DNA from: Escherichia phage OES_C-1
Strand: one strand, 5' to 3'
DNA: 64,000 nt
Sequence record: PQ553088
This document shows positions 13,258 to 57,528 of this stretch, in pieces. The position numbers were made by a program, and so were the translations under genes. Each line of letters begins with the position of its first letter. Position 1 is the first letter of the stretch. The notes below the pieces were generated by a model. The model made no database searches. It was not told the origin of the DNA and saw only the letters and a program-made list of their open reading frames with translations.

Positions 13258-14823
13258 ATGACTATCAAAACTAAAGCTGAACTTTTGAACAAATGGAAGC
13301 CATTACTGGAAGGTGAAGGTTTACCGGAAATTGCTAATAGCAAACAAGCGATTATCGCTAAAATCTTTGAAAACCAGGAAAAAGATTTCCAGACAGCTCC
13401 AGAGTACAAAGACGAAAAAATCGCTCAGGCGTTCGGTTCTTTCTTAACAGAAGCTGAAATCGGTGGTGACCACGGTTACAATGCTACTAACATCGCTGCA
13501 GGTCAGACTTCTGGCGCAGTAACTCAGATTGGCCCAGCTGTTATGGGTATGGTACGTCGTGCTATTCCTAACCTGATTGCTTTCGATATTTGTGGTGTTC
13601 AGCCGATGAACAGCCCGACTGGTCAGGTATTCGCACTGCGTGCTGTATACGGTAAAGACCCAATCGCTGCCGATGCTAAAGAAGCATTCCACCCAATGTA
13701 TGGTCCAGATGCAATGTTCTCTGGTCAGGGTGCTGCTAAGAAATTCCCAGCTCTGGCTGTTAGCACACAAACTACAGTAGGTGATATCTATACTCACTTC
13801 TTCCAGGACACTGGTACTGTATATCTGCAGGCTTCTGTTCAAGTAACAATCGATGCTGGCGCGACTGATGCAACTAAATTAGATGCTGAAATTAAAAAAC
13901 AAATGGAAGCTGGTGCACTGGTAGAAATCGCTGAAGGTATGGCTACTTCTATCGCTGAACTTCAGGAAGGTTTCAACGGTTCTACCGATAACCCATGGAA
14001 TGAAATGGGCTTCCGTATCGATAAACAAGTTATCGAAGCTAAATCTCGCCAGCTGAAAGCTGCTTACTCTATTGAATTAGCACAAGACCTCCGCGCTGTT
14101 CACGGTATGGATGCTGATGCTGAACTGTCTGGTATTCTGGCTACCGAAATCATGCTGGAAATCAACCGTGAAGTTGTTGATTGGATTAACTACTCAGCTC
14201 AGGTTGGTAAATCTGGTATGACCCTGACTCCGGGTTCTAAAGCTGGTGTATTTGACTTCCAGGACCCAATCGATATTCGTGGTGCTCGCTGGGCAGGTGA
14301 ATCCTTTAAAGCTCTGTTGTTCCAGATTGACAAAGAAGCAGTTGAAATTGCTCGTCAGACTGGTCGCGGCGAAGGTAACTTCATTATCGCTTCCCGTAAC
14401 GTAGTTAACGTTCTGGCTTCAGTTGATACCGGCATTTCTTATGCTGCACAGGGTCTGGCTACCGGCTTTAACACTGATACTACCAAGTCAGTATTTGCTG
14501 GTGTTCTGGGTGGTAAATACCGTGTATATATCGACCAGTATGCTAAACAGGATTATTTCACTGTAGGTTATAAAGGTCCGAACGAAATGGATGCTGGTAT
14601 TTACTACGCTCCATATGTAGCTCTGACTCCGCTGCGTGGTTCCGATCCGAAGAACTTCCAACCGGTAATGGGATTCAAAACTCGTTACGGTATCGGTATC
14701 AACCCATTTGCAGAATCCGCTGCTCAGGCTCCGGCTTCTCGCATCCAGAGCGGTATGCCTTCTATTCTGAATAGCCTTGGTAAAAACGCTTACTTTAGAC
14801 GTGTATATGTTAAAGGTATCTAA
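13258..14823 (+). CDS. 23: major capsid protein gp23
   Basis: 521 aa; strong terminator downstream. Confidence 0.97.
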   Translation: MTIKTKAELLNKWKPLLEGEGLPEIANSKQAIIAKIFENQEKDFQTAPEYKDEKIAQAFGSFLTEAEIGGDHGYNATNIAAGQTSGAVTQIGPAVMGMVRRAIPNLIAFDICGVQPMNSPTGQVFALRAVYGKDPIAADAKEAFHPMYGPDAMFSGQGAAKKFPALAVSTQTTVGDIYTHFFQDTGTVYLQASVQVTIDAGATDATKLDAEIKKQMEAGALVEIAEGMATSIAELQEGFNGSTDNPWNEMGFRIDKQVIEAKSRQLKAAYSIELAQDLRAVHGMDADAELSGILATEIMLEINREVVDWINYSAQVGKSGMTLTPGSKAGVFDFQDPIDIRGARWAGESFKALLFQIDKEAVEIARQTGRGEGNFIIASRNVVNVLASVDTGISYAAQGLATGFNTDTTKSVFAGVLGGKYRVYIDQYAKQDYFTVGYKGPNEMDAGIYYAPYVALTPLRGSDPKNFQPVMGFKTRYGIGINPFAESAAQAPASRIQSGMPSILNSLGKNAYFRRVYVKGI

Positions 14824-14849
14824 TCTCTAACGATAGAAACACAATTTTA

Positions 14850-14872
14850 GGGAACCTTCGGGTTCCCTTTTT
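14850..14872 (+). terminator. intrinsic terminator after gene 23
   Basis: GGGAACC-TTCG-GGTTCCC followed by TTTTT. Confidence 0.7.
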
Positions 14873-15574
14873 CTATTTTATACGATAGCAATCAGGCATA
14901 TCATCCGCATTTATCCAATTGCGAATAGTTTTAGGACTAACTTTAAAATGCTCCGCTGCGTAATCAGGATTATCAAATTTGACACCCTTTATACATATTG
15001 GAATAAATTTTTTAATACCGCTAAGTTTTTCAGAAATAGCTTTACGATGTGAAATCGATATAGGTTTATTTTTTCGTGGATGAACATGTGTTTTATAATA
15101 TTCATTGCGCCCTTTAACTCGCTTCGCGATAGTTTCATCAGATTGCTTAACGCCTGTTTTTGCCTTTGATATTTTTCGTTTAGCTTCCACAGTCATTCCT
15201 TCTTTTGTTCGCATTGATAACATATTACGATATGAAGGATCTTGCAAATGAACTATAACTGGATTTCCTCTACCACCAATAGCAGCATTATAAGTATCAG
15301 TTCTCATAACGAATTCCTCATTGACTAGTAAAGCTTCCATTTTATACATCTCCTCAGATGAGGAGAAAGAATAAAGAATTTCTTTTTTAAAGTTATGAAT
15401 ACCATATTTTTTGATGGATTTTTTGATGTTTACGCCAGAACCCATATAACCATCGTTTTCGTCAAGAGTAGCATGAGCTCCGATGTAAATTTTTCCATTG
15501 ATGATATTAGTAATTTGATATATTAAATATTTCATTTTAACCACCACTCCATTTGTATATGAATATAATATCAT
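14873..15574 (-). CDS. segD: GIY-YIG homing endonuclease-like protein (SegD position)
   Basis: 233 aa; N-terminal GIY-YIG (LIYQITN...GKIYIGAH); opposite strand between genes 23 and 24. Confidence 0.8.
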   Translation of the reverse strand: MILYSYTNGVVVKMKYLIYQITNIINGKIYIGAHATLDENDGYMGSGVNIKKSIKKYGIHNFKKEILYSFSSSEEMYKMEALLVNEEFVMRTDTYNAAIGGRGNPVIVHLQDPSYRNMLSMRTKEGMTVEAKRKISKAKTGVKQSDETIAKRVKGRNEYYKTHVHPRKNKPISISHRKAISEKLSGIKKFIPICIKGVKFDNPDYAAEHFKVSPKTIRNWINADDMPDCYRIK

Positions 15575-15599
15575 ATTACTTTGGTCTTGTAAATAACTT

Positions 15600-15607
15600 T
15601 ATAAATA
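15600..15607 (+). promoter_or_regulatory. late promoter TATAAATA (gene 24)
   Basis: Exact TATAAATA 28 nt before gene 24 ATG. Confidence 0.6.
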
Positions 15608-15634
15608 GTATTATATTTCAACAAGGAAAATACA

Positions 15635-16918
15635 ATGGCTAAAATCAACGAACTTCTGCGCGAATCAACCACAACGAATAGCAACTCAATCGGTCGCCCA
15701 AATCTCGTTGCTTTGACTCGCGCTACCACTAAATTAATATATTCTGACATTGTAGCAACGCAAAGAACTAATCAACCTGTTGCTGCTTTTTACGGTATCA
15801 AATACCTTAACCCAGATAACGAATTTACATTTAAAACTGGTGCTACTTACGCTGGCGAAGCTGGATATGTAGACCGAGAACAAATCACAGAATTAACAGA
15901 AGAGTCTAAATTAACTCTCAATAAAGGCGATTTATTCAAATATAATAATATCGTTTATAAAGTATTAGAAGATACACCATTTGCTACCATTGAAGAAAGC
16001 GATTTAGAATTAGCTCTTCAGATTGCAATTGTTCTTTTAAAGGTTCGTCTATTTTCTGATGCAGCGTCAACGAGCAAATTTGAAAGCTCTGATAGCGAAA
16101 TTGCTGATGCTAGATTCCAGATTAATAAATGGCAAACCGCGGTTAAATCTCGTAAACTTAAAACTGGCATCACAGTTGAATTAGCACAAGATTTAGAAGC
16201 AAATGGATTCGATGCTCCTAATTTCTTGGAAGATTTGCTTGCAACTGAAATGGCGGATGAAATCAATAAAGATATTCTACAGTCTTTGATTACAGTGTCA
16301 AAACGCTATAAAGTTACAGGAATTACTGATACTGGATTCATTGATTTGAGTTATGCATCTGCACCTGAAGCTGGTCGTTCATTATACCGAATGGTATGTG
16401 AAATGGTTTCACATATCCAAAAAGAATCAACTTATACAGCAACGTTCTGTGTTGCTTCAGCTCGTGCCGCTGCGATTCTTGCTGCATCAGGTTGGTTAAA
16501 ACATAAACCAGAAGATGATAAATATCTTTCACAAAATGCCTATGGGTTCTTAGCTAATGGTTTACCGCTTTATTGCGATACTAACAGCCCATTAGATTAT
16601 GTAATCGTTGGCGTAGTAGAAAATATTGGTGAAAAAGAAATTGTCGGATCAATTTTCTATGCTCCGTATACAGAAGGTCTTGACTTAGATGACCCTGAAC
16701 ATGTAGGTGCATTTAAAGTTGTAGTTGATCCAGAAAGCTTGCAACCATCTATCGGTTTATTAGTTAGATATGCTTTATCTGCAAATCCTTACACTGTAGC
16801 AAAAGATGAAAAAGAAGCAAGAATAATTGATGGTGGAGACATGGATAAAATGGCGGGTCGTTCAGATTTGTCTGTTTTATTAGGTGTTAAGCTACCAAAA
16901 ATTATCGTTGATGAATAA
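15635..16918 (+). CDS. 24: capsid vertex protein gp24
   Basis: 427 aa, gp23 paralog; late promoter 15600-15607. Confidence 0.95.
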   Translation: MAKINELLRESTTTNSNSIGRPNLVALTRATTKLIYSDIVATQRTNQPVAAFYGIKYLNPDNEFTFKTGATYAGEAGYVDREQITELTEESKLTLNKGDLFKYNNIVYKVLEDTPFATIEESDLELALQIAIVLLKVRLFSDAASTSKFESSDSEIADARFQINKWQTAVKSRKLKTGITVELAQDLEANGFDAPNFLEDLLATEMADEINKDILQSLITVSKRYKVTGITDTGFIDLSYASAPEAGRSLYRMVCEMVSHIQKESTYTATFCVASARAAAILAASGWLKHKPEDDKYLSQNAYGFLANGLPLYCDTNSPLDYVIVGVVENIGEKEIVGSIFYAPYTEGLDLDDPEHVGAFKVVVDPESLQPSIGLLVRYALSANPYTVAKDEKEARIIDGGDMDKMAGRSDLSVLLGVKLPKIIVDE

Positions 16919-16919
16919 A

Positions 16920-16945
16920 ACAAAGGGACCGAAAGGTCCCTTTTT
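16920..16945. terminator. bidirectional terminator between gene 24 and rnlB
   Basis: GGGACC-GAAA-GGTCCC flanked by A-run and T-run between convergent genes. Confidence 0.7.
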
Positions 16946-18537: not shown

Positions 18538-19956
18538 TTATGGATAGGTATAGATGATACCAGTTTCTAAAGCAGTTTTATGAATGATGTATCCATTACG
18601 CGATTCTTGAACATCAACTTCTGGATAGTCTTTCATCATCTTCTGAAGAGTGTAACGATGTAGGTAATATTTACTATCTGGGTCGTCAGTTTTCCAATCT
18701 TTACCTTCTTCGGTCATTTTTTGGATTTCATCCATAACCCACCAACCGCACCAGATATAAGCTGAAGTACGATGTGGAAGAGGATGAACATAAGGTAGTT
18801 CACCTTCTGGTTCCGGAGCAACTTTATCAGTCACTTGAACTTGACCTGTGGCTTTAACTGTTTTACTATCATAGTCAGTTGCTGTAACGACAGCAGTAAC
18901 TTCAATAGTTTGACTTCCAATAGATGAGGTATCAACAGTATATACGTTAGTTGACCCTTCTACAGGAGAAGAATCTTTCTTCCATGAGTAAGTAATTTGT
19001 GCTGCTTCAGGTGCGCCAGTAACATTAGCAGTAAATGTAGCCGAAGCATCTTGCTGAACATTAATAGAAGGAGGAGTCAATGTAACCTGTGGATTCATTG
19101 TCTTCTTATTAACTGTCAATGATACTTCATTAGAAGTAACTGTTTTTGCGTCGTAATCCGTTGCTGTTACTTGGGCTATACATTTAATTTTTTTAACTCC
19201 AGCCACAGTTGGAGTATAGTTAAATGTAGAGTTAGTTTCTCCACCAACTTGTGAATCATCTACATACCACTGATACGTAGCAGACGCTCCATCAGGTTGA
19301 GAAGCTAATGCAGCAGTAAATTGAACCGGGGTTCCAATTACTCCAGCAGCAGGACTAGCAGGAGTTACTGCCAAGGTAGTTGTCTGCGTCTTTTTATTAA
19401 CAGTCAGTGACACTTCATTAGAAGTAACTTCCTTTGTATCATAATCTGCCGCGGTTACTTGAGCTACACACTTAATTGTTTTAACTCCGCTTGTAGTAGG
19501 AGTATAATTGAATGTAGCAGAAGTTGCTTCGCTCACAGGAGAACCGTCAACGTACCATTGATACGTAGCAGATGCGCCCGATGGCTGTGAAGCTAAGGCA
19601 GCAGTAAATTCAACAGCTGTTCCGATTACTCCTTCTGGAGGACTATTAGGAGTTACAGCTAAGGTAGTTGTCTGTGTCTTATTTTGAACTGTGATAGTTG
19701 TACTAATTTCAGCTGTTTCAGCATCAGTATCTGGAACTGGGTTTGTTGCAACTACTTTAATAGTTTTTTGACCGGCAGGTCCTTTTAGTACATAACTAAA
19801 AGTTGCAGATGTTTCTTCCTGTGGAACATCATCTACAGTCCAAGCATATGTAATAGGTCCATCTCCAGTTTCACCACTGGGTGTAGCAGTAAACTGCTGA
19901 GTCTGATCTATAACTCCAGTAGGTGTTTTAGGAGTTATATCAACTGTAAAAGCCAT
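18538..19956 (-). CDS. hoc: highly immunogenic outer capsid protein Hoc, with an extra Ig-like domain
   Basis: 472 aa; N-terminal Ig-like domains and C-terminal capsid-binding region as in T4 Hoc; contains a 96-aa tandem duplication. Confidence 0.9.
   Translation of the reverse strand: MAFTVDITPKTPTGVIDQTQQFTATPSGETGDGPITYAWTVDDVPQEETSATFSYVLKGPAGQKTIKVVATNPVPDTDAETAEISTTITVQNKTQTTTLAVTPNSPPEGVIGTAVEFTAALASQPSGASATYQWYVDGSPVSEATSATFNYTPTTSGVKTIKCVAQVTAADYDTKEVTSNEVSLTVNKKTQTTTLAVTPASPAAGVIGTPVQFTAALASQPDGASATYQWYVDDSQVGGETNSTFNYTPTVAGVKKIKCIAQVTATDYDAKTVTSNEVSLTVNKKTMNPQVTLTPPSINVQQDASATFTANVTGAPEAAQITYSWKKDSSPVEGSTNVYTVDTSSIGSQTIEVTAVVTATDYDSKTVKATGQVQVTDKVAPEPEGELPYVHPLPHRTSAYIWCGWWVMDEIQKMTEEGKDWKTDDPDSKYYLHRYTLQKMMKDYPEVDVQESRNGYIIHKTALETGIIYTYP
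19102..19677 (-). repeat. intragenic tandem duplication (2 x 288 bp) encoding two Ig-like domains of Hoc
   Basis: Protein residues 94-189 and 190-285 are near-identical (TQTTTLAVTP...SLTVNKK); the DNA copies are clearly related. Confidence 0.85.
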
Positions 19957-20667: not shown

Positions 20668-20696
20668 TAGATATATTTATTACATGGTATTTAGAC

Positions 20697-22208
20697 ATGA
20701 CTGACATTAAAGTACATTTTTATGATTTTAGTCACGTGAGAATTGATTGTGAAGAAAGTACATTTCATGAACTCCGTGATTTCTTTAGCTTCGAAGCTGA
20801 CGGGTATCGGTTTAATCCTCGCTTCAGATATGGCAACTGGGATGGACGAATCCGTCTTTTAGATTATAATCGCCTTCTTCCATTCGGCTTAGTTGGGCAA
20901 ATTAAAAAGTTCTGCGATAACTTTGGCTATAAAGCTTGGATTGACCCGCAAATTAACGAAAAAGAAGAATTATCAAGAAAAGATTTTGATGAATGGCTTT
21001 CTAAATTAGAAATCTATTCAGGAAATAAAAGAATTGAACCGCATTGGTATCAAAAAGATGCAGTGTTCGAAGGGTTAGTTAATCGTCGTAGAATTCTTAA
21101 TCTTCCAACATCCGCAGGTAAATCTTTAATTCAAGCTTTGCTTGCACGTTATTATTTGGAAAATTATGAAGGTAAAATTCTTATCATTGTTCCAACAACT
21201 GCTCTGACAACTCAGATGGCTGATGACTTTGTTGACTATCGTTTATTCAGTCATGCAATGATAAAGAAAATCGGTGGTGGAGCATCAAAAGATGATAAAT
21301 ATAAAAATGATGCACCGGTAATTGTTGGTACATGGCAAACTGTAGTAAAACAACCAAAAGAATGGTTCTCGCAGTTTGGAATGATGATGAATGATGAATG
21401 CCATCTTGCCACAGGAAAAAGTATTTCATCTATCATATCAGGTTTAAATAACTGCATGTTCAAATTCGGTTTGTCTGGTTCATTACGTGATGGCAAAGCC
21501 AATATCATGCAGTATGTTGGAATGTTTGGTGAAATATTTAAGCCAGTAACGACTTCTAAATTAATGGAAGATGGACAAGTAACTGAGTTAAAAATTAATA
21601 GTATTTTTCTTCGCTATCCCGATGAGTTCACTACTAAATTAAAGGGAAAAACTTACCAAGAAGAAATAAAAATTATTACTGGGCTCAGTAAAAGAAATAA
21701 ATGGATCGCTAAATTAGCTATTAAACTTGCGCAAAAAGATGAAAACGCTTTTGTCATGTTTAAGCATGTATCACACGGTAAAGCTATTTTCGATTTAATT
21801 AAAAATGAATACGATAAAGTTTATTACGTATCAGGGGAAGTTGATACTGAAACACGCAACGTAATGAAAACCTTAGCTGAAAATGGTAAAGGAATAATTA
21901 TAGTAGCTAGTTATGGTGTATTTTCTACTGGTATTTCAGTTAAAAATCTGCATCACGTTGTTTTAGCGCACGGTGTTAAATCAAAAATCATTGTATTACA
22001 AACAATCGGTCGTGTATTACGTAAGCATGGTTCTAAAACAATCGCAACGGTCTGGGACCTCATTGATGACGCGGGCGTAGTTTCTAAATCAAAAACATCT
22101 TCTAAAAAATACTCGCATTTGAACTATCTTTTAAAACACGGCATTGATCGTATTCAGCGCTACGCAGATGAAAAATTTAATTACGTAATGAAAACAGTTA
22201 ATTTATAA
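20697..22208 (+). CDS. uvsW: UvsW DNA/RNA helicase
   Basis: 503 aa; helicase motifs LPTSAGKS and DECH. Confidence 0.9.
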   Translation: MTDIKVHFYDFSHVRIDCEESTFHELRDFFSFEADGYRFNPRFRYGNWDGRIRLLDYNRLLPFGLVGQIKKFCDNFGYKAWIDPQINEKEELSRKDFDEWLSKLEIYSGNKRIEPHWYQKDAVFEGLVNRRRILNLPTSAGKSLIQALLARYYLENYEGKILIIVPTTALTTQMADDFVDYRLFSHAMIKKIGGGASKDDKYKNDAPVIVGTWQTVVKQPKEWFSQFGMMMNDECHLATGKSISSIISGLNNCMFKFGLSGSLRDGKANIMQYVGMFGEIFKPVTTSKLMEDGQVTELKINSIFLRYPDEFTTKLKGKTYQEEIKIITGLSKRNKWIAKLAIKLAQKDENAFVMFKHVSHGKAIFDLIKNEYDKVYYVSGEVDTETRNVMKTLAENGKGIIIVASYGVFSTGISVKNLHHVVLAHGVKSKIIVLQTIGRVLRKHGSKTIATVWDLIDDAGVVSKSKTSSKKYSHLNYLLKHGIDRIQRYADEKFNYVMKTVNL

Positions 22209-31085: not shown

Positions 31086-31115
31086 ATTATAACACAACAC
31101 GAGTGACTTGTAAAC
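31086..31115 (-). promoter_or_regulatory. early (sigma70-type) promoter GTTTAC-N18-TATAAT
   Basis: Minus strand GTTTAC (31110-31115) and TATAAT (31086-31091); drives the 96-aa ORF. Confidence 0.55.
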
Positions 31116-33172
31116 TACATCTTGAACTTTTTAGACATTCCATTGATGTTAACCAAAGAAGCCAAGATTTGAGAAACTTCATTTTCCTCTTCTTTTGATT
31201 CTTCTACAAGGAATTGGTTAAATCCAGTCATTGGACGAACTTCACCAGTTTCCATCAGATGGTCACCATCATATACCGATTCTTCTAATTGTTCAGAAGG
31301 AGGAACGATTGTGCCTTCGATTAGATACTTGTTATAAGCAGTTTCTTTCATCATGTACGTACTCACTTTATTAATCTTCAGCAAAATTCCACGCGGTAGA
31401 ATAACTTCAGCTTCTGATGGAAATCCTGATAAATGACCTGGAACGATAACTTTGATTCGCTCAGCTCCTTTAATTACCATACCCACGCTAGTTTCAGCAT
31501 CTTCATTGGCATACGCAGAATGACTGCCCATATGCATTAAATCTTCAGCATCAACGGAACCTTCTCCTTCACCAGAAAATACTGCACTGGAATCATCTAG
31601 GGCCATATAGTTTTTACCATACTCACCGAAGATATTTGGTTTAAGTGATGTGGATACGAAGTTCTTGAAATAGAACATTTTATTTTCAATATTATGACGT
31701 AAAGTTTTAAAGGTAACTTCTTGGCCACGGTAAAGCGTAGTTCCTGGAGGAAGAACTGATCCTTTGGCAAAGGCAGAATCCATTGTCTCGATGTGTTTAA
31801 TAGCTCGTTCCATGTATTCTTCACGTGTAGAATCTGGTTTACCTAAAAGGAACGAGTTCATTTCAACATATGAATCTGCACAATAATCTTCAATTACATC
31901 AGACTCAGCTTGAGTTAATCCTTTTGGAGTTACTTCAGTACTTGCATATTCATACGCTTGAGAAGCAGACTCATTAATCAATTTATAAACGCCATTCATG
32001 ACAAATTGAACAATAGCTACCTTTTCATCTGGCGTGGCTTTAGAACCTTTAACTAAATCATTGATAATTTTCTTAATAACATCAAAGCTATTAGAAATAT
32101 TAATGTCAGCAAGATCGCTTAAAATTTTATCAGTTTTATAATCAAAAAATTCTTTATTCTTTAAATATTCCTGAGAACCTTGATATGTTATATCGCTCTG
32201 TAACTTGATAGATGGATCACGTAAACGTGCATGAGCCAATGCAATATGATTTCGGAAGCTTTCGAGTTCATAATCACTAGATTTAAAACGAGAAGCACTT
32301 CTCATACCACCGATAGCTCCTTTGCTGAAGTTTGAACCAACCTGAATAACGCCGGAGTTCATTGGTCCTTCTGCTTTATATACCGGAACTTTAGATTCAA
32401 ACTCTTGATATTTCTTAGCAGCGAAGCTATCACCCTGAAGTGAAGCATCGACAGTAGAGTATTGAGCTTGTGCTGCTAATCGACGACTAATTTTAGTTTT
32501 CTGAATAACAGCTTGATCTGTGCGCTTATCATTTTCTAAAGCAATAGAAGCAGCAACAGCGACAGCTTTAGGAACAGCATTACCTGTTTTAACATCTACA
32601 TAAACATCACCAACCTTTGATTCAACTTTTGTGAATAACTCAGTTGAAATAGGAGGTACACCTGGAATGTCTTCTAAATTGGCATTTTTACGGTAAACCA
32701 TAATATATGCATATTTCTTATCATAGTCCCAGATTTCCTTTAAAAGAACATATCGACCTGCTCCTTTAGTACGTACTAAACGGTCGGCAATAACTTGCAT
32801 TTGACGAGCAGCGCCATTTGTTTTACTTTTTAGTACGCGGAATAGGCATGCGTCAATTTTATACTGTTTCATTGTTTGAAGAGCAGTATCAAAAACCGCA
32901 TTAATGACACCAATTGGATTTCCACCCAAGTTTTTAAGTTTAACTAATGATAGTTTTTCATTGACACCTATCATTACGATATGCATCATTTTATCGCCTG
33001 GCTTAACGTTTTTATTTGTATCACCGCCAGAGGTGTATGTACAAAATCTAAATCCAGGAAGCACACTTTCTTCACCTGCTTGAATAGCAAAAATTTGAGG
33101 TATTTTATGCTTAGGATTTAAGTTAACAACCGGCGCCGAAGCGCCGTCAAATAATTCTGTAATAAGTTCCAT
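31115..33172 (-). CDS. Alt-family ADP-ribosyltransferase paralog (685 aa)
   Basis: N-terminal ~230 aa about 65% identical to the adjacent Alt; ART R-S-EXE motifs (YRGQ, FVSTSL, EAEVILPRG). Confidence 0.8.
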   Translation of the reverse strand: MELITELFDGASAPVVNLNPKHKIPQIFAIQAGEESVLPGFRFCTYTSGGDTNKNVKPGDKMMHIVMIGVNEKLSLVKLKNLGGNPIGVINAVFDTALQTMKQYKIDACLFRVLKSKTNGAARQMQVIADRLVRTKGAGRYVLLKEIWDYDKKYAYIMVYRKNANLEDIPGVPPISTELFTKVESKVGDVYVDVKTGNAVPKAVAVAASIALENDKRTDQAVIQKTKISRRLAAQAQYSTVDASLQGDSFAAKKYQEFESKVPVYKAEGPMNSGVIQVGSNFSKGAIGGMRSASRFKSSDYELESFRNHIALAHARLRDPSIKLQSDITYQGSQEYLKNKEFFDYKTDKILSDLADINISNSFDVIKKIINDLVKGSKATPDEKVAIVQFVMNGVYKLINESASQAYEYASTEVTPKGLTQAESDVIEDYCADSYVEMNSFLLGKPDSTREEYMERAIKHIETMDSAFAKGSVLPPGTTLYRGQEVTFKTLRHNIENKMFYFKNFVSTSLKPNIFGEYGKNYMALDDSSAVFSGEGEGSVDAEDLMHMGSHSAYANEDAETSVGMVIKGAERIKVIVPGHLSGFPSEAEVILPRGILLKINKVSTYMMKETAYNKYLIEGTIVPPSEQLEESVYDGDHLMETGEVRPMTGFNQFLVEESKEEENEVSQILASLVNINGMSKKFKM

Positions 33173-33175
33173 GAT

Positions 33176-35272
33176 TTATCCTTGAACGAACTTGTAAGGC
33201 ATGTTTGTAATATCTATGCAAGACGCAATAATTCCAAGAGATGATTCTACTTTCTGTTTAACATTTGATGAAACAAATGATGCAAAGTCAACTCTGTCTT
33301 CTATTTCAATATCACCTGTCATTGCAACTACTTCACCAGTTTCCATTAGACGGTCACCGTCATAAATTACTGATTCGGTGAGTTCTTCCGTAGTCATAAC
33401 TTCAGCTTGAATGAGTTTTGTATTATTAGATGTTGTTCCGTCATTATTAGAAGCATCAGTTATTTTATTAACTTTGACCATCAATCCGCGTGGTAGAATT
33501 ACTTCAGCTTCTGTTGCTATTCCGAGACTTCCTGGATATACAACATTAACTTTATGAGCTCCATCAATTGCCCATCCTATTTGAACTTTAACGTATTCAG
33601 GATTTTCTTTATACGCTCTTATTTCGTTTGGATTAATAGTTATTCCTTCTTCATTTTTATCAACTGTTAATTCATTGCGAGCTTCTGGTTCTAAAAGACC
33701 GATACCAGCATGTGTAATTCCAAAACGTCCAAAAATGATAGGAGTTAAAGAAGTAGATACAAAATTTCTGAAATAGAACACTTTATTTTTAACTAGTGCT
33801 TCGTATATAGGAGCAGTCATACTTTGAGCACGATAAACTGTAATGCCTTCTGGTATACGGTCACCATTTTCAAAAGCTGAATCTAAGTTATTTATAGCAG
33901 ATTCAATTTCTTTTTCACTCATTACATCATATCGTTCTGGATTGTAGCGGCCTAAAAGAAGATTATTGATGTCAGTATATCCTGATCCACAATACTCTCT
34001 AATGCCGCGCTTTTGCGATGGAGTATATTTAGAACCATCACGTGCAATGGTAATATCAATCATTGGACCTGCACCAATTCCAGAAAAGCTATAAATCATT
34101 CGTTTGAGGAATTTAGTTTTTGCTGCGTTCCAGGAATTTTTAGTTATTTCTTCCCAGACTTCATCTGGCTGCCCTTTACGAGTTTTATTATGTTTATCAA
34201 GCCAATTATCTTTATATTCTTCAAAGAGTTGATTAATAGCTGCTGCGTATTTCTCTAAACATTTTATTGAAGTAGTTGGTTCATTTTTAATCGCATTAAG
34301 AATTACATCTTTAATTTTTTCAGAAACTTCATCAACCTCACTTTTTGAAAAGAATTTATAGTCATAGTGAAGTTCATTTGCAGTTCCTTCGGCAATAATT
34401 TTTGCTGCCTTAGTTTTAGAAGCTAATGAATTAATTCCAAGCTTCATTTCTTCTGCTTCGGGAATTAAAGGAGCGGTAGCAGGTTTATTAAAATTAGCTG
34501 CGGTAGATTCATACTTCTGGAATAATTCACTTTCAAATCTAGAAGATTCTAATGACTGACTTTGCGCAATTGCTCTACGGGAAATTTTAACTTTAACAAT
34601 AACAGCTTGGTCAGAACGTTTATCATTTTCTTGTGCAATAGATGCTGCAATTGCCTCATTTTTAGTTACTTGAGCTCCGGTATCTTTATTGATATAAACA
34701 TCGCCGACCTTCGATTCAACTTTAGTAAAGAGCTCGGTACTAATTTCCGGAACTCCTGGAATGTCTTCTAGTGATACATTTTTGCGATGTATAAGAATAT
34801 ATGCATACTTTTTATCATAATCCCAGAGTTCCTTAAGAAGGACGTATCTGCCACCTGAACGACTACGGATAAGTCTATCAGCAATAACTTGAATTTGTCG
34901 AGCTTGACCAGCAGTTTTAGACTTAAGAATACGAAGCATACAGGCATCAATTTTATACTGACGCATTGTTTGCATTGCAACAGTAAAAACTGAATTGATG
35001 TAATTAATTGGGCTTGGACCGAGACCTTTTAATTTAGCAATTGAACCTTTAGCAGTTAGTGTAAAAGGAACAATGTGCATCATTTTATCGCCCATCTTTA
35101 AATCACGGTTAGTATCACCTCCAGATGTATATGTACATAAACGAAAGCCTGGTTGCTCAATTGCGTCATCAACATGAACTGAAAAAATTTGCGGTATTTT
35201 CTTCTTTGGATTTAAGTTTGTAATCGGAAGAGTAGTATCTTCGTCAAATAATTCTGTAATAAGTTCCATCAT
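33176..35272 (-). CDS. alt: Alt ADP-ribosyltransferase (packaged internal head protein), 698 aa
   Basis: MELITELFD N-terminus; ART motifs YRAQ, FVSTSL, EAEVILPRG; minus-strand late promoter at 35293-35300. Confidence 0.85.
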   Translation of the reverse strand: MMELITELFDEDTTLPITNLNPKKKIPQIFSVHVDDAIEQPGFRLCTYTSGGDTNRDLKMGDKMMHIVPFTLTAKGSIAKLKGLGPSPINYINSVFTVAMQTMRQYKIDACMLRILKSKTAGQARQIQVIADRLIRSRSGGRYVLLKELWDYDKKYAYILIHRKNVSLEDIPGVPEISTELFTKVESKVGDVYINKDTGAQVTKNEAIAASIAQENDKRSDQAVIVKVKISRRAIAQSQSLESSRFESELFQKYESTAANFNKPATAPLIPEAEEMKLGINSLASKTKAAKIIAEGTANELHYDYKFFSKSEVDEVSEKIKDVILNAIKNEPTTSIKCLEKYAAAINQLFEEYKDNWLDKHNKTRKGQPDEVWEEITKNSWNAAKTKFLKRMIYSFSGIGAGPMIDITIARDGSKYTPSQKRGIREYCGSGYTDINNLLLGRYNPERYDVMSEKEIESAINNLDSAFENGDRIPEGITVYRAQSMTAPIYEALVKNKVFYFRNFVSTSLTPIIFGRFGITHAGIGLLEPEARNELTVDKNEEGITINPNEIRAYKENPEYVKVQIGWAIDGAHKVNVVYPGSLGIATEAEVILPRGLMVKVNKITDASNNDGTTSNNTKLIQAEVMTTEELTESVIYDGDRLMETGEVVAMTGDIEIEDRVDFASFVSSNVKQKVESSLGIIASCIDITNMPYKFVQG

Positions 35273-40014: not shown

Positions 40015-40084
40015 TTTATTCTCCTTTGTTTGTGTAAGATAATACTATCACAAAGGAACCATACTGTAAACAACTTTGTGCAAT

Positions 40085-42670: not shown

Positions 42671-42903
42671 AGTACGCCATACACCCTTTGTGCTTCAACT
42701 AATCCATCAAAATCCAATTTGAGATGTGTTATTTGGTCACCATCACCTGGATTCACAATTACTAATACTGAACGAGGAGTTTCGGTAATAACACGAACCG
42801 ATGTTTCAGGAAATCGTTCAGAAACCTTATTTACCAATTCCTGAGCAAATAGTTTAACTTTTTCTTGGAATTCTTTAACAGTAATTGGTTTTTCACTTAG
42901 CAT
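42667..42903 (-). CDS. hypothetical protein (cd.2 position)
   Basis: 78-aa ORF. Confidence 0.5.
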   Translation of the reverse strand: MLSEKPITVKEFQEKVKLFAQELVNKVSERFPETSVRVITETPRSVLVIVNPGDGDQITHLKLDFDGLVEAQRVYGVL

Positions 42904-43424
42904 GTTGATCCAAGCTCCTTACTTTCAACGTTTTTAACTAATTTGACAGAAACTAATTCAGCATCTTGAGTAATCATTACCGGACCTTCTTCATACTCTT
43001 CAAGATATTCTAGAGCTTTCTTTTTAGCTTCTTCCTTCGTATCAGTTTGAGCATAGATATAAAACATACAACCAGTAATACCTACTACTTTCCACTTAAT
43101 TTCTTTATCAGCTTTAATTTCAAATTTACTGACAGAATCATCTTTTTGAACTTCTTCGAAAAAAGAATATTCTAACATATAAGCAATTGAAAATAACGGG
43201 CTAACTTTATAGGATTCGCCCATTACATCAACAGCTTTATACCAGCAGTCATCAATTTCTCGTTTAATGCTAATAACATTTTTCGCAGGATCTATTTTTA
43301 CTTTAAATGAATTTTCCCCAATAAACTGGGCAATTCGTTTATTAGCCCCGCAAGTTTCATTAAAAATATCTTTATATCCAGCTTTAAAGCGATAAACCTT
43401 ATCTTCTTCAAACCATTCGCTCAT
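42897..43424 (-). CDS. hypothetical protein (cd.3 position)
   Basis: 175-aa ORF with early promoter-like motif and hairpin upstream. Confidence 0.5.
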   Translation of the reverse strand: MSEWFEEDKVYRFKAGYKDIFNETCGANKRIAQFIGENSFKVKIDPAKNVISIKREIDDCWYKAVDVMGESYKVSPLFSIAYMLEYSFFEEVQKDDSVSKFEIKADKEIKWKVVGITGCMFYIYAQTDTKEEAKKKALEYLEEYEEGPVMITQDAELVSVKLVKNVESKELGSTC

Positions 43425-43966: not shown

Positions 43967-45377
<1,411 letters not shown>

Positions 45378-45381
<4 letters not shown>

Positions 45382-48427: not shown

Positions 48428-49606
48428 TTAAAAATATTTTTTAAAACTCATCATAACTTTATCATCAACATCATTATCAATCTGTGCTACAAGGTAAGAT
48501 GACAGTTCTACTTCTTGTGGCGCGGATTGAACATTATCAGAATTAAGGTATTCACGAATCCAAGGATATGGATGTTTAACCGGAGCATCGGTAATTGGGC
48601 ATGGAAGACCGCACTGTTTCATACGAGATACAGTTAAGTAATCAATAAAGCTCCACATGCTATTTGTATTTAATCCAGGAACATCGCCATCTTTAAATAA
48701 ATGAACTGCCCAGTCTTTTTCTTGACGGTTAACTTCCATGAAAATATCAACTGCTTCTTGTTCACACTCTTGAGCAATTTTAACCCATTCATCGCCATCA
48801 GTACCGGATTGAAGTTGACGAATAATATATTGGGTGCCTTTAAGGTGAAGCTGCTCATCACGTGCAATGAACTTCATAATCTTGGCATTACCTTCCATGA
48901 TTTCCATGTTCTTATGGAAGTTAAAGGTACATGCAAAAGATACATAAAAACGAATAGCTTCTAAGGCATTAATAACGTGCAAACAGAGGTAAAGAGATTT
49001 CATTAGTGCTCGTTTAGCTTCGGCTTCTTGTTTAATAGCTCGATTTAAACGAAAAACAGCATCAGGAGATTCTTTAGCTAGTTCTGTAAATTCTTTAGCA
49101 TTTTCCCATTCACGGGTTTTAGTCAGAACATCATCATAATAGCGACCGATAGATTCAGCACGTTTCATGATAGCTTCATCTAGTACAATCTCATCAAATA
49201 CCTTCGATGGATCAGTATAAAGATTTCGCATGATATGAGTATATGAACGACTGTGAATAGTTTCACTAAAAGTCCATGTAGCAACCCATGTATCAAGACT
49301 TGGGTCTGAAATTAATGACATAAGTACAGCAGATGGCGCACGACCCTGAATGCTATCTAGAAGTGATTGATACTTCAGATTATTAGTAAAAATATCTTGC
49401 TGATATTGAGGAAGCTTGTTAAATTGTGCAGCATCCATCATTAAGTTTACTTCTTCAGGACGCCAGAAAAATGACAACTGCTTTTCGGTTAAATCTTCAA
49501 AAACTTTATGACGTTGAATATCATAACGCGCAATACCAAGACCTGAACCGAAGAACATAGGTTCTTTTAAAACATCAACTGGATTTGTATTAAAAACTGT
49601 GCTCAT
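48428..49606 (-). CDS. nrdB: aerobic ribonucleotide reductase small subunit, uninterrupted
   Basis: 392-aa continuous ORF; both EXXH iron-ligand motifs present; no intron. Confidence 0.9.
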   Translation of the reverse strand: MSTVFNTNPVDVLKEPMFFGSGLGIARYDIQRHKVFEDLTEKQLSFFWRPEEVNLMMDAAQFNKLPQYQQDIFTNNLKYQSLLDSIQGRAPSAVLMSLISDPSLDTWVATWTFSETIHSRSYTHIMRNLYTDPSKVFDEIVLDEAIMKRAESIGRYYDDVLTKTREWENAKEFTELAKESPDAVFRLNRAIKQEAEAKRALMKSLYLCLHVINALEAIRFYVSFACTFNFHKNMEIMEGNAKIMKFIARDEQLHLKGTQYIIRQLQSGTDGDEWVKIAQECEQEAVDIFMEVNRQEKDWAVHLFKDGDVPGLNTNSMWSFIDYLTVSRMKQCGLPCPITDAPVKHPYPWIREYLNSDNVQSAPQEVELSSYLVAQIDNDVDDKVMMSFKKYF

Positions 49607-49657
49607 AAATTTTCCGCTTAGTTAATAGATAGTGACTCGTCCGTGAGTCAAATTATA

Positions 49658-51922
49658 TCATAATTTACAGGATGAACAATCTTCAGCTTTTGGAGTTTCT
49701 ATTTCGTAATCATCAGTACCGGAACCATCACGAGTATTATGATAATAGAAGTTTTTAATGCCATAATACCATCCGTATAGCATGTCATCAATCATTACAG
49801 ACATTGGAACCTTTCCTTTTGGAAAAATCTGCGGGTCATAATATGTATTCGCTGAAGCTGATTGACATACCCATTTCAGCATAATAGCTACCTGCGTAAG
49901 ATAAGGTTTATTGCCTTTCTTAGCTAATTTCCATGTATAATCATAGAGGTCTATGTTATGCTCAATATTGGGCACGACTTGATTAAAGGAACCCTCTTTT
50001 GATTCTTTAACAGAGACTGGTCCACGTGGAGGCTCGATACCGTTTGTACTGTTAGAAACTTGGGAAGATGACTCACATGGCATAAGTGCTGATAATGTGC
50101 TATTACGGATGCCAAAGAGCTTAAGGTCTTCCCGCAGCGACGACCAGTCACAAACGTATTTTGGAGCTGCGATTTGGTCAATCTTTTTATTGTACCAGTC
50201 GATAGGTAATTCGCCTCGAGACCAACGAGTGTCTGAATAATATTCGCAAGGTCCTTTTTCTTTGGCGAGCTTAATGGATGCTTTAATGAGTCCATACTGT
50301 AGTCTCTCAAATAGTTCATGTGTTAAATCGTTAGCATCTTCATAAGAAGCAAAGTTACTTGCCAGCCAAGCTGCATAGTTAGTAACACCTACGCCAAGGT
50401 TTCGACGCTTTTTAGCTTTTTCTGCTTCAGGAACTGGATATCCTTGGTAATCCAAAAGATTATCAAGAGCGCGAACTTGGACTTCTGCCAATTCATTAAT
50501 TTTATCTTGGTCTTGCCAATCGAAGTTATCCAACACAAATGCAGATAACGTACACAATCCAATTTCAGCATCAGGACTATTCACATCATTTGTTGGAATA
50601 GCAATTTCACAGCACAAGTTACTCTGACGAATAGGTGCCTTTTCACGAATAAACGGAGTATAGTTATTCGTATTATCAATGAACTGTACATAAATCCTTG
50701 CTGTTCCTGAGCGTTCAGTCATGAGCAATTCAAATAATTCACGAGCTTTAATACGCTTTTTACGAATATTAGGATCTTTTTCTGCTGCTTCGTATAATTC
50801 ACGGAAACGGTCTTGGTCTTTAAAATAAGAATAATAAAGCTCGCCACCCATTTCATGCGGACTGAACAAAGTAATGTAGTCGTTCTTTCCAAACCGTTCC
50901 ATCATCAAATCATTCAGCTGGACGCCATAATCCATATGACGGATACGGTTTTCTTCTACACCTTTGTTATTTTTCAAAACGAGAAGATTTTCAACTTCCA
51001 AATGCCAAATAGGATAATAAGCAGTAGCAGCGCCGCCACGAATTCCGCCCTGTGAACATGATTTAACAGCAGTCTGAAAATGTTTCCAAAAAGGAATAAC
51101 ACCAGTATGACGCACTTCACCTGTGCCAATCTTAGAACCTTCGGCACGAATCATACCAACGTTAATGCCGATTCCAGCTCGTTTAGAAATATACTCAACA
51201 ATTGAAGCAGAAGCCTTATTGATAGACTTCAGCGAATCACCTGCTTCAATAACAACGCATGAACTAAACTGTCGAGTTGGAGTACGACATCCAGCCATAA
51301 TAGGAGTTGGCAGTGAAATCTGTCGAGTAGATACTGCTTCATAAAAACGAATAACATGTTTTAATCTGTCAACAGGTTCATCTTGATGCAATGCCATTCC
51401 AATAGTCATAAATGCAAACTGTGGAGTTTCATAAATTTGACCAGTGGTTTTATCTTTAACGAGATATTTTTCTTTTAATTGCATCGCTCCGGAATAAGTA
51501 AATTCCATATCCCGCTCATGCTTAATTTTTGATTCTAAAAATGTAATTTCTTCTGCTGAATATTTTGACAACAGTTCAGGGTCGTATTTACCTTCATTTA
51601 CACAGTAAGAAATATGGTCAATAAATGAACGGGGCTCATATTGTCCGTAAACATGCTTACGAAGAGCAAACATTAAACAGCGTGCAGCTACGTATTGATA
51701 ATCAGGCTCTTCAACTGAAATAGAATTTGCAGCAGCCTTAATTACAATGGTTTGAATATCATCAGTGGTCATTCCATCACGGAGATATGATTTAATATTT
51801 TCATATAATTCATAAGGATCTACGGATGTTCCTTCAGCTGCCCAAGATAAAACTTTAATAATTTTTTGCGGGTCAAAGCTCTGAGAAACACCACTACTTT
51901 TGATAACATTAATTAATTGCAT
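49658..51922 (-). CDS. nrdA: aerobic ribonucleotide reductase large subunit
   Basis: 754 aa, T4 length. Confidence 0.95.
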   Translation of the reverse strand: MQLINVIKSSGVSQSFDPQKIIKVLSWAAEGTSVDPYELYENIKSYLRDGMTTDDIQTIVIKAAANSISVEEPDYQYVAARCLMFALRKHVYGQYEPRSFIDHISYCVNEGKYDPELLSKYSAEEITFLESKIKHERDMEFTYSGAMQLKEKYLVKDKTTGQIYETPQFAFMTIGMALHQDEPVDRLKHVIRFYEAVSTRQISLPTPIMAGCRTPTRQFSSCVVIEAGDSLKSINKASASIVEYISKRAGIGINVGMIRAEGSKIGTGEVRHTGVIPFWKHFQTAVKSCSQGGIRGGAATAYYPIWHLEVENLLVLKNNKGVEENRIRHMDYGVQLNDLMMERFGKNDYITLFSPHEMGGELYYSYFKDQDRFRELYEAAEKDPNIRKKRIKARELFELLMTERSGTARIYVQFIDNTNNYTPFIREKAPIRQSNLCCEIAIPTNDVNSPDAEIGLCTLSAFVLDNFDWQDQDKINELAEVQVRALDNLLDYQGYPVPEAEKAKKRRNLGVGVTNYAAWLASNFASYEDANDLTHELFERLQYGLIKASIKLAKEKGPCEYYSDTRWSRGELPIDWYNKKIDQIAAPKYVCDWSSLREDLKLFGIRNSTLSALMPCESSSQVSNSTNGIEPPRGPVSVKESKEGSFNQVVPNIEHNIDLYDYTWKLAKKGNKPYLTQVAIMLKWVCQSASANTYYDPQIFPKGKVPMSVMIDDMLYGWYYGIKNFYYHNTRDGSGTDDYEIETPKAEDCSSCKL

Positions 51923-52791: not shown

Positions 52792-53807
52792 CATTATGTT
52801 CAGATAAGGTCGTTAATCTTACCCCGGAATTATATCCAGCTGCATGTCACCATGCAGATCAGACTATATCTCCAACTTGTTAAAGCAAGTTGTCTATCGT
52901 TTCGAGTCACTTGACCCTACTCCCCAAAGGGATAGTCGTTAGGCATTTATGTAGAACCAATTCCATTTATCAGATTTTACACGATAAGTAACTAATCCAG
53001 ACGAAATTTTAAAATGTCTAGCTGCATCTGCTGCACAATCAAAAATAACCCCATCACATGAAATCTTTTTAATATTACTAGGCTTTTTACCTTTCATCTT
53101 TTCTGATATTTTAGATTTAGTTATGTCTGAATGCTTATGATTAAAGAATGAATTATTTTCACCTGAACGATTTCTGCATTTACTACAAGTATAAGCAGAA
53201 GTTTGTATGCGAACACCGCACTTACAAAACTTATGGGTTTCTGGATTCCAACGCCCGTTTTTACTTCCGGGTTTACTGTAAAGAGCTTTCCGACCATCAG
53301 GTCCAAGTTTAAGCATCTTAGCTTTAACAGTTTCAGAACGTTTCTTAATAATTTCTTCTTTTAATGGATGCGTAGAACATGTATCACCAAACGTTGCATC
53401 AGCAATATTGTATCCATTAATTTTAGAATTAAGCTCTTTAATCCAAAAATTTTCTCGTTCAATAATCAAATCTTTCTCATATGGAATTTCTTCCAAAATA
53501 GAACATTCAAACACATTACCATGTTTGTTAAAAGACCTCTGAAGCTTTATAGAAGAATGGCATCCTTTTTCTAAATCTTTAAAATGCCTCTTCCATCTCT
53601 TTTCAAAATCTTTAGCACTTCCTACATATACTTTATTGTTTAAAGTATTTTTAATCTGATAAATTCCGCTTTTCATAAATACCTCTTTAAATATAGAAGT
53701 ATTTATTAAAGGGCAGTCCTACAATTTAGCACGGGATTGTCTACTAGAGAGGTTCCCCGTTTAGATAGATTACAAGTATAAGTCACCTTATACTCAGGCC
53801 TCAATTA
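52792..53807 (-). mobile_element. group I self-splicing intron in td (1016 nt) carrying the I-TevI ORF
   Basis: Intron 5' end UAAUUGAGGCCUGAGUAUAAGGUGACUUAUACUUG... recognised; exon 1 ends ...UUGGGU; length 1016 nt. Confidence 0.9.
52939..53676 (-). CDS. intron-encoded GIY-YIG homing endonuclease I-TevI
   Basis: 245 aa; N-terminal GIYQIKN...YVGSA GIY-YIG module and C-terminal DNA-binding region. Confidence 0.9.
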   Translation of the reverse strand: MKSGIYQIKNTLNNKVYVGSAKDFEKRWKRHFKDLEKGCHSSIKLQRSFNKHGNVFECSILEEIPYEKDLIIERENFWIKELNSKINGYNIADATFGDTCSTHPLKEEIIKKRSETVKAKMLKLGPDGRKALYSKPGSKNGRWNPETHKFCKCGVRIQTSAYTCSKCRNRSGENNSFFNHKHSDITKSKISEKMKGKKPSNIKKISCDGVIFDCAADAARHFKISSGLVTYRVKSDKWNWFYINA

Positions 53808-54401: not shown

Positions 54402-54761
54402 TCAATACGGTTTAGCGTCAAATTTTCTTTCAATTTCAGGCGTGAAATATAATTCTTTACCACGTTTGGAAAAGCGACCAATAATATGATAATTATTCTC
54501 ATCAAACGTGATATTGCCAATATCCATAGCTTTCAACCAAATATCGATATTTCTGTCAAGCTTTATATCAAAATTCCAATACGGAGAACTATTACCGAAA
54601 ATACTGCAAGCGGATTCAGTGAAACAACTACTATAAATCTTGTCTTTAGGAACTACTAATTGATAGACGCCTTTAATAAACTGAGGACCTTTCCATTTTG
54701 GCTGTTTCGCGTCTTTTTCTAATAGAATAGGGTAATAATTAAAGCTCATATTTTCCGCCAC
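54402..54761 (-). CDS. hypothetical protein inserted between frd and td
   Basis: 119-aa ORF from GTG 54761 (115 aa from ATG 54749); no recognisable motif. Confidence 0.5.
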   Translation of the reverse strand: MAENMSFNYYPILLEKDAKQPKWKGPQFIKGVYQLVVPKDKIYSSCFTESACSIFGNSSPYWNFDIKLDRNIDIWLKAMDIGNITFDENNYHIIGRFSKRGKELYFTPEIERKFDAKPY

Positions 54762-55712: not shown

Positions 55713-55742
55713 ATAGTATCACACTACTACCCTTCTGTAAAC
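55713..55742 (-). promoter_or_regulatory. early promoter-like GTTTAC-N18-TACTAT upstream of frd.1 ORF
   Basis: Minus strand GTTTAC at 55737-55742 overlapping frd.2 stop; TACTAT at 55713-55718. Confidence 0.45.
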
Positions 55743-56422: not shown

Positions 56423-56490
56423 CAGCAGTATTGCCGATAGTTGTATAGTACCATAGAAGAACAGAGATGTAAACAGTTTTGTGAAAAATT

Positions 56491-57454: not shown

Positions 57455-57520
57455 TTTTATTTCCTTTTTAATTTAATTAACAGTTGGTGCTATGACGATG
57501 TATGACCTCATAGCTGGTCA
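57455..57520 (-). promoter_or_regulatory. gene 32 translational operator (pseudoknot plus AU-rich leader)
   Basis: Leader reads UGACC-AGCUAUGA-GGUCA-UACAUCG-UCAUAGC (H-type pseudoknot) then UUAAUUAAAUUAAAAAGGAAAUAAAA-AUG. Confidence 0.7.
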
Positions 57521-57528
57521 GTGAGATA

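Follow-up and report, generated by a model that had tools for sequence, protein, structure and literature searches.

The antisense gene between capsid genes 23 and 24

The window analyzed here, a 64,000-nt stretch of Escherichia phage OES_C-1 (PQ553088), carries an open reading frame between the two capsid genes 23 and 24, on the strand opposite to both. The ORF listing of the window places this frame at exactly 14873..15574 on the minus strand, where it encodes 233 aa from an ATG start, begins MILYSYTNGVVVKMKYLIYQITNIINGKIYIGAH, and contains LIYQITN...GKIYIGAH, in agreement with the coordinates and the GIY...YIG motif reported in the first-pass annotation. The gene, its neighbors, and the elements around its start are as follows:

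13258..14823, plus strand: gene 23 (major capsid protein), left neighbor, a 521-aa ORF
14873..15535, minus strand: most likely translated segD reading frame, 220 aa and stop codon (Met at 15535 invariant in 25 aligned sequences)
14873..14875, minus strand: segD stop codon
15536..15574, minus strand: 13-codon in-frame upstream extension, probably untranslated (stop in T4; starts of orthologs)
15547..15550, minus strand: Shine-Dalgarno sequence GGAG, 11 nt before the ATG at 15535
15635..16918, plus strand: gene 24 (capsid vertex protein), right neighbor, a 427-aa ORF

A megablast search of 14600..15900 against 50,697 phage records recovered the segD locus at 100% DNA identity in Escherichia phages OES_C-2 and OES_C-3, and at 98.6% identity in T4 (AF158101), where the match covers three features, namely gene 23, segD, and gene 24. 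The T4 record describes segD as a 223-aa "SegD homing endonuclease; GIY-YIG family" and places it between these two genes, antisense to both. Counted from a conserved Met, 218 of 220 residues are identical between the window protein and T4 SegD (AAD42657, UniProt P19895), the two substitutions (Ile to Met at position 108 and Gly to Ser at 172, 220-aa numbering) both falling in the linker; the high identity to T4 SegD and the antisense synteny between genes 23 and 24 expected of a SegD ortholog are thus both found. From this locus identity and annotation, the window can be assigned to a T4-like phage of the genus Tequatrovirus, and the ORF can be read as a real gene rather than a chance frame, namely the ortholog of T4 segD. 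The earlier description of a free-standing GIY-YIG gene lying antisense between genes 23 and 24, at the position of SegD, is borne out by the same comparison. The ORF is also matched by PHROG 314 ("homing endonuclease", 1e-56), and the homolog search returned 361 matches (best E=1e-141). When the family HMM was run over the window, I-TevI was the sole other SegD relative found, and segE and segG are genuinely absent from this stretch. The gene itself is already known, having been annotated in T4 for decades, with its biochemistry published in 2018; what is mildly new is limited to the footprint of the promoter, the shifted start, and the estimates of selection described below.

The position of the start codon was evaluated in an alignment of 25 sequences with 39–99% identity, including the window ORF. 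Met14 of the 233-aa frame is invariant in this alignment and represents residue 1 in 22 of the 24 other sequences, the exceptions being the T4 annotation, which is three residues longer, and a sequence with a short N-terminal extension (P0016), the sole other ortholog whose extension is comparable to the 13 codons seen here. In T4, the frame opened by the upstream ATG (window position 15574) closes with TAA at codon 4; this codon is TAT in the window, and the ORF therefore reads as 233 aa. The ATG annotated in T4 lies three codons upstream of the conserved Met, whereas the window has GTG at that position. In addition, no Shine-Dalgarno sequence is found upstream of 15574, and the ATG at 15574..15572 is located inside the spacer and extended −10 element of a predicted promoter (see below), upstream of the predicted transcription start, so that it would be missing from the mRNA. 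For other cassettes, GGAG is found 4–8 nt before the conserved ATG, while the lineage of the window and T4 includes ~4 extra nucleotides between the Shine-Dalgarno sequence and this ATG. In T4, the annotated ATG arises from these extra nucleotides and follows the Shine-Dalgarno sequence by just 2 nt, a distance that has already been questioned (Edgell et al. 2010); the 11-nt spacing to the ATG at 15535 is suboptimal. Based on the T4 stop, the conservation of Met14, and the replacement of the annotated T4 ATG by GTG, the segD product is most likely a 220-aa protein starting at Met14, 13 codons after the first ATG. The length of 233 aa proposed from the frame alone holds for the maximal open frame and probably not for the product, and too early a start is probable for the T4 annotation (223 aa), for the OES-type entries (233 aa), and for the first-pass ORF alike. 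The candidate N-termini read MKYLIYQITN... (220 aa), MILYSYTNGVVVK..., and MFKMK..., and one database entry (P0001) is 233 aa long.

Domain organization and catalytic residues of SegD

Profile searches and structure prediction divide the 220-aa protein into three parts:

15251..15535, minus strand: N-terminal GIY-YIG nuclease domain, residues 1 to ~95 (Pfam, profile, and Foldseek matches)
15005..15250, minus strand: helical linker region, residues ~96–177 (AlphaFold helices; weak NUMOD3-like match)
14876..15004, minus strand: C-terminal helix-turn-helix DNA-binding domain, residues ~178–220 (1i3j profile and fold matches)

Among Pfam models, SegE_GIY-YIG (PF19835) passes its cut-off (27.8 bits against 25), while the general PF01541 model stays below (19.1 bits against 22.6); a NUMOD3 match in the linker (E=0.03) is also below the cut-off, and weak helix-turn-helix matches cover residues 204–227 of the 233-aa ORF. 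A single-sequence search of the PDB returned only a marginal match to the I-TevI DNA-binding domain (E=0.18), and a family profile built from 52 sequences was needed to match both the I-TevI catalytic domain (1mk0/1ln0) and its DNA-binding domain (1i3j, E=7e-4). Against full-length I-TevI, hhalign yielded a probability of 97.3% (E=2e-11) with 197 aligned columns across both domains. The AlphaFold model obtained from the family alignment has a mean pLDDT of 88.7, with values above 90 over residues 1–80 and helices at 100–113, 116–126, 133–149, and 161–171. In a Foldseek search of this model against the PDB, the four best matches are I-TevI domains, all with a probability of 1.00, including the catalytic domain 1mk0/1ln0 (TM on the target 0.64) and 1i3j_A (31% identity). 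These matches show SegD to be I-TevI-like end to end, i.e., a two-domain protein in which a GIY-YIG nuclease is connected by a helical linker to a helix-turn-helix. The plan common to SegD and I-TevI, the endonuclease of the T4 td intron, is maintained at an identity of ~25%, and SegD displays the C-terminal helix-turn-helix on an extended linker that is typical of I-TevI. However, I-TevI is intron-encoded and carries a Cys4 zinc finger in its linker, whereas SegD is free-standing and lacks this element: no Cys cluster is found in the linker, the only cysteines in the protein are Cys180 and Cys216 (220-aa numbering), and the Cys-rich zinc-finger segment of I-TevI is aligned by hhalign to Cys-free SegD sequence.

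Residue conservation was scored over 52 homologs in the same 220-aa numbering. Tyr6, Asn10, Tyr17, Gly19, His21, Asp28, Tyr30, Gly32, Ser33, Gly34, Gly45, Phe49, Glu67, Tyr82, Asn83, Gly87, and Gly88 are invariant in this set, and the N-terminal GIY and YIG tripeptides, expected 10–11 residues apart, are present as L-I-Y (Tyr6) and Y-I-G (Tyr17, Gly19). Glu67 and Asn83 are the counterparts of I-TevI Glu75 and Asn90, although the register relative to I-TevI Glu73/Glu75 shifts by 1–2 positions between alignment methods, and both are conserved in SegA–G. For I-TevI Arg27, no counterpart was found in SegD, the I-TevI residues 23–31 (DFEKRWKRH) being placed opposite a gap by HMMER, MAFFT, and hhalign alike, and the stretch from YIG to KKYG in SegD is free of Arg. 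The 9-residue segment of I-TevI that includes Arg27 and His31 is thus missing, and SegD instead reads H-x-T-x5-D-G-Y-M-G-S-G. In an alignment of the T4 Seg proteins, SegA, SegB, SegC, and SegE carry this same motif, likewise without the Arg segment. Where the first-pass annotation had looked to alignment with SegA–SegG for a catalytic Arg and Glu, the Glu, along with the Asn, is therefore invariant, and the Arg27 segment is absent, equally so from SegA, SegB, SegC, and SegE. Since Edgell et al. 2010 list these four enzymes among those with demonstrated mobility, and they lack the Arg as well, the missing residue reads as a trait of the Seg subfamily and no sign of inactivation or decay. The four T4 proteins have the catalytic signature YIGxHxT...NDGYMGSG...KKYG...E...YN..GG.GG in common with SegD, at 30–41% identity, and are similarly free-standing and intergenic. 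In contrast to segD, which is antisense and preceded by an early-type promoter, segA, segB, segC, and segE are co-oriented with their neighbors and expressed from middle or late promoters (Edgell et al. 2010), and the C-terminal domains of their products are unlike the I-TevI-like helix-turn-helix of SegD.

A compact cassette with a predicted early promoter

The segD gene is framed by expression signals of its neighbors and preceded by a predicted promoter of its own:

14849..14868, no strand assigned: gene 23 terminator hairpin, left cassette edge (plus-strand terminator scan; homologous hairpin in T2)
15565..15593, minus strand: predicted segD promoter, sigma-70 / T4-early type (consensus scan, conservation, pattern enrichment)
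15593..15588, minus strand: segD −35 hexamer TTTACA
15570..15565, minus strand: segD −10 hexamer TATTAT (17-nt spacer ending TGA, i.e., TGn)
15600..15607, plus strand: gene 24 late promoter TATAAATA, right cassette edge (read from the sequence; also in T2)

In the segD-less phage T2 (AP018813), the 83-bp spacer between genes 23 and 24 is composed of the same terminator hairpin followed by TATAAATA, and ~730 bp separate these two elements in the window. On the right, TATAAATA and the segD −35 hexamer face away from each other with 6 nt between them, and all antisense cassettes have the reverse complement TATTTATA preceding their −35 hexamer. On the left, the terminator read on the segD strand is a stable 3′ hairpin (−24.5 kcal/mol, z=−3.9) with no U-tract.

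The candidate promoter sits 30 nt upstream of the conserved ATG, with a predicted transcription start near 15558 (about 107246 in T4). In a consensus scan it scored 10 of 12 matches plus the TG; however, across this AT-rich region the scan overall returned 21 sites, versus 20.6 in shuffles, i.e., no excess. Because such a generic scan is uninformative here, conservation was tested, and support for the promoter comes from this conservation together with an excess of exact pattern matches. Ten antisense cassettes, representing seven independent lineages, all carry TTTACA as the −35 hexamer, followed after exactly 17 nt by a −10 hexamer of the form TAnnAT, with an invariant G at −14; between lineages, the first 13 positions of the spacer display only 26% identity, which is the chance level. 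Cassettes of the Mosigvirus type include an extra 88-aa ORF between promoter and segD, and in these the promoter is kept at the head of the cassette. Within the 64-kb window, the exact pattern was observed five times against 0.72 expected, and none of 100 shuffles reached five. All five sites are on the minus strand, the strand of the early genes, and four of them, including that of segD, are followed within 22–31 nt by a Shine-Dalgarno sequence and the ATG of an ORF of at least 40 aa; for the fifth (55713), a Shine-Dalgarno sequence and an ATG are within range, but the first ORF of at least 40 aa begins 109 nt downstream. The features of a T4 early promoter, i.e., hexamers 17 nt apart, conservation, and an early-transcribed gene downstream, are thus all found, the transcription start itself being a prediction. 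The 22-nt 5′ leader displays no significant RNA structure (−5 kcal/mol, z=−0.1), and translational control in the style of I-TevI or segB was accordingly dropped as a candidate, the leader lacking a structure that could mask the ribosome-binding site.

Taken together, segD appears to have its own conserved promoter of the sigma-70 early type. The view that the gene has no obvious strong promoter finds no support, given TTTACA-N17-TAnnAT and its conservation in seven lineages. The predicted promoter is also at odds with a review of the field, in which searches failed to find a segD-specific promoter and transcript levels were considered to be maybe vanishingly low (Edgell et al. 2010), and it agrees with later T4 omics, in which segD is classified as an early RNA and middle protein (Wolfram-Schauerte et al. 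2022, PMC9697503 supplements). In these data, label-free intensities (LFQ) of T4 SegD are seen from 1–3 min and plateau near 1.5e8 by 12 min, like those of SegA, while gp24 rises only from 12 min (PMC9697503). Comparative footprinting may thus reveal a promoter that had been reported as not findable and that fits subsequent measurements; as a smaller claim, the early promoter and the Met14 start would have escaped both the T4 annotation and the 2010 review.

Distribution, selection, and persistence of segD

The segD cassette is patchily distributed among close relatives. Approximately 502 records have flanks at least 95% identical to those of the window, and 52 of these (~10%) cover at least 80% of the segD locus by megablast; by tblastn, SegD was detected at ≥95% identity in 52 records and at 60–80% in 8. 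Presence is therefore patchy at a fixed site, as expected of a homing gene, with T2 representing the empty site. A Gelderlandvirus, a Mosigvirus, and two metagenomic contigs carry orthologs with 57–72% identity at this site, likewise in antisense orientation. Relatives with 39–41% identity occupy the same spacer in the sense orientation behind TATAAATA in KP15-type phages (Slopekvirus) and in Citrof4 (Pseudotevenvirus); these genes are similar to SegD over the full length and in domain order, but rely on the late promoter TATAAATA where segD has an early-type promoter. One copy, that of PP01, carries a one-base deletion in an A6 run, which leaves it frameshifted and with a shortened annotation. 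As read from these genomes, a patchy distribution, recurrent use of a single site, and copies that occasionally decay together make up the pattern of a mobile endonuclease cassette. A 300-nt sliding comparison of the window, T4 (segD+), and T2 (segD−) from genes 20 to hoc detected no segD-linked haplotype or co-conversion tract, the flanks of T4 and segD-less T2 being 98–100% identical, so that this comparison is not informative on recent mobility.

We estimated selection through Nei-Gojobori dN/dS; more distant pairs were saturated at synonymous sites. The ratio was 0.063 between the window and T4 (8 synonymous and 2 non-synonymous changes), 0.078 between the window and a more diverged copy (L008, dS 0.75), and 0.076 and 0.17 among Mosigvirus-type copies, for an overall range of 0.06–0.19. 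These values indicate that SegD is under purifying selection, which would exclude a decaying remnant; purifying selection does not, however, separate selfish persistence from a benefit to the phage.

For T4 SegD, the cleavage is reportedly made at a 16-bp site with 3′ overhangs, and the site is said to be identical in segD+ and segD− phages. Its activity was described as "easily detected" in extracts of T4-infected cells (Brok-Volchanskaya et al. 2008, PMC2330249), and the protein is called an endonuclease in the title of a dedicated paper, summarized elsewhere as having found no homing of segD in T4 and no recombination at the SegD site inserted into rII (Sokolov et al. 2018, Virology 515:215). 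The first-pass statement that it is unknown whether the gene encodes an active enzyme or a remnant is consequently outdated, at least for T4. With a protein 99% identical to that of T4, activity, expression, and lack of homing would by analogy carry over to the window phage. Because homing is reported not to occur for T4 SegD, the protein should preferably be called a "homing-type endonuclease" rather than a proven homing endonuclease.

Overall, these observations are very probably best explained by a known T4-type gene, carried as a compact ~730-bp antisense cassette, that is a selfish homing-type element and repeated invader of the 23/24 spacer and that encodes an active nuclease without demonstrated drive. 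The cassette would consist of an early promoter, a Shine-Dalgarno sequence, and a 220-codon ORF, with the terminator of gene 23 on one side of the insertion and the late promoter of gene 24 on the other. As suggested by promoter conservation and T4 omics, host RNA polymerase with sigma-70 would start at ~15558 early in infection, translation would start at 15535 after the 22-nt leader, and the transcript would run into the shared hairpin (14868..14849), which has no U-tract in this direction. In this model, segD would already have been transcribed when genes 23 and 24 enter their very strong late phase. Such a time offset would keep it clear of convergent late transcription through gene 23 and of the divergent gene 24 late promoter, and would account for an antisense gene being both tolerated and expressed between the two late genes with the heaviest transcription. 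By homology and in line with the T4 literature, the helix-turn-helix and linker may anchor SegD on an extended asymmetric site, as in I-TevI, from which the tethered GIY-YIG domain would introduce a staggered double-strand break, most likely in an I-TevI-like manner. In T-even phages, SegD would now behave as an expressed, active nuclease without demonstrated drive.

How such a nuclease persists can be viewed in several ways. One tentative possibility, which we consider a minority reading, is that segD is still actively homing, in crosses or hosts beyond those tested, by cutting near the 23/24 spacer of naive relatives. Its presence in ~10% of close relatives, the occupation of this spacer in several genera and in both orientations, and the intact ORFs with conserved catalytic residues, maintained under purifying selection and encoding an enzyme that is expressed in T4, are all consistent with ongoing homing. 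Against this, no homing for segD and no stimulated recombination at its site are reported (Sokolov et al. 2018), and the 98–100% identical flanks of T4 and T2 display no linked haplotype.

It is rather unlikely, although worth keeping in view, that segD has instead been domesticated, i.e., that it persists through an advantage its nuclease gives the phage rather than through drive of its own, for instance through the exclusion of competitors or through breaks that prime recombination-dependent replication. Such a role would fit dN/dS ratios of 0.06–0.19 over deep divergence, an early promoter and Shine-Dalgarno sequence conserved across lineages, a protein abundance in T4 similar to that of SegA (PMC9697503), and the reported lack of homing in T4 (Sokolov et al. 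2018). However, ~90% of close relatives, T2 included, do without segD, the copy in PP01 carries a frameshift, purifying selection would also be expected if a selfish gene invaded recurrently, and there is no known phenotype. The broader proposal that SegD-family nucleases are kept in the 23/24 spacer of several T4-like genera for a benefit to the phage other than homing is comparably doubtful, and would be compatible with the conserved early promoter, the strong purifying selection, the Seg-like protein levels, and the lack of drive in T4 crosses. That selection preserves a nuclease reported not to home raises a question about the function of SegD.

The reading that follows from the first-pass annotation, a 233-aa protein translated from the ATG at 15574 with no promoter of its own and made, if at all, through read-through from the distant rnlB, 24.2, or inh promoters, is improbable. 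The frame is open from 15574 in the window and matches a 233-aa entry (P0001), and read-through from promoters 2.4–4.8 kb away has been proposed (Edgell et al. 2010). However, T4 has a stop after codon 3 of the extension, no Shine-Dalgarno sequence precedes 15574, orthologs start at Met14, and a conserved predicted promoter is found directly upstream of Met14. Read-through would also have to cross a bidirectional terminator detected by the terminator scan between rnlB and gene 24 (16922..16943).

Finally, an inactive and decaying homing-endonuclease remnant is very improbable: while the Arg27 segment is missing, the PP01 copy is frameshifted, and homing was reportedly not observed in T4, the ORF is intact, Tyr6, Tyr17, Glu67, and Asn83 are invariant, the Arg-less motif also occurs in SegA, SegB, SegC, and SegE, which are listed as mobile (Edgell et al. 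2010), dN/dS is far below 1, and for T4 such a remnant is already contradicted by activity in extracts (PMC2330249) and by detection of the protein through mass spectrometry (PMC9697503).

GIY-YIG genes retained and missing relative to T4

Comparison with T4 showed that segE, segG, nrdB.1 with mobE, and the nrdB intron with I-TevIII are absent from the window. Over its 64 kb, no GIY-YIG gene other than segD and I-TevI has been retained. The I-TevI ORF is intact, and no residue differences from T4 I-TevI were spotted in a comparison by eye.

Loci compared with T4
20683..20703: segE absent (T4 counterpart 112044-112680)
48930..48933: nrdB intron with I-TevIII absent (T4 138457-139058)
49606..49662: nrdB.1 and mobE absent (T4 139719-140420)
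57517..57553: segG absent (T4 147918-148542)
52939..53676, minus strand: I-TevI ORF, 245 aa, within the td gene

Three minus-strand ORFs lie in window segments without a counterpart at the matching T4 position (42897..43424, 175 aa; 45061..45381, 106 aa; 54402..54761, 119 aa), and none of the three (0/3) displayed any SegD-family likeness.

SegD-type genes in the gene 23/24 spacer of relatives

The gene 23/24 spacer is colonised in both orientations by SegD-type genes. SegD-like genes with 39–41% identity, oriented as the capsid genes, were found between genes 23 and 24 at four loci, with a late-promoter TATAAATA upstream in L015 and L017. An 88-aa ORF (MNKLNFIRTTLSNLDKDIK...) separates the conserved promoter from segD in cassettes of the Mosigvirus type and in related ones.

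Features at segD loci of relatives
L015, L016, L017, 1501 to about 2160: SegD-like gene match, sense relative to capsid genes, 39–41% identity
L091, 2501..3136: SegD-like gene, sense relative to capsid genes, 39–41% identity
L007, 2731..2997, plus strand: 88-aa ORF, also in L011 and L013

The segD of phage PP01 (L090) is frameshifted by a one-base deletion at nucleotide 148, in an A6 run, and in the corresponding record the only part annotated is a C-terminal piece of 158 aa; the frameshift could represent either true decay or a homopolymer sequencing error.

Further promoter-pattern matches and a likely terminator beyond gene 24

Besides the segD site, the window includes four sites that match TTTACA-N17-TAnnAT exactly and have an upstream TG; each lies on the minus strand (4/4).

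Additional pattern matches
31086..31114, minus strand
40042..40070, minus strand
55713..55741, minus strand
56445..56473, minus strand

For 3/4, an ORF of at least 40 aa on the minus strand begins 22–31 nt downstream; the match at 55713 is the exception, being 109 nt upstream of the first ORF of this size. These four sites and the segD promoter probably form one class of early promoters.

Between gene 24 and rnlB, a hairpin (16922..16943) with a perfect 9-bp stem and T-runs on both strands is likely a bidirectional terminator, which would stop read-through from rnlB toward segD.

Hoc and alt regions

The Hoc homolog (18538..19956, minus strand) is 472 aa long, versus 376 aa in T4. T4 110749-111053 has two matches in the window, which suggests one additional Ig-like repeat. 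The window displays two full-length alt-like ORFs in tandem (31115..33172 and 33176..35272, both minus strand; 685 and 698 aa). In T4, a single alt gene is accompanied by two fragments, alt.-1 and alt.-2, described in the T4 record as an old partial duplication.
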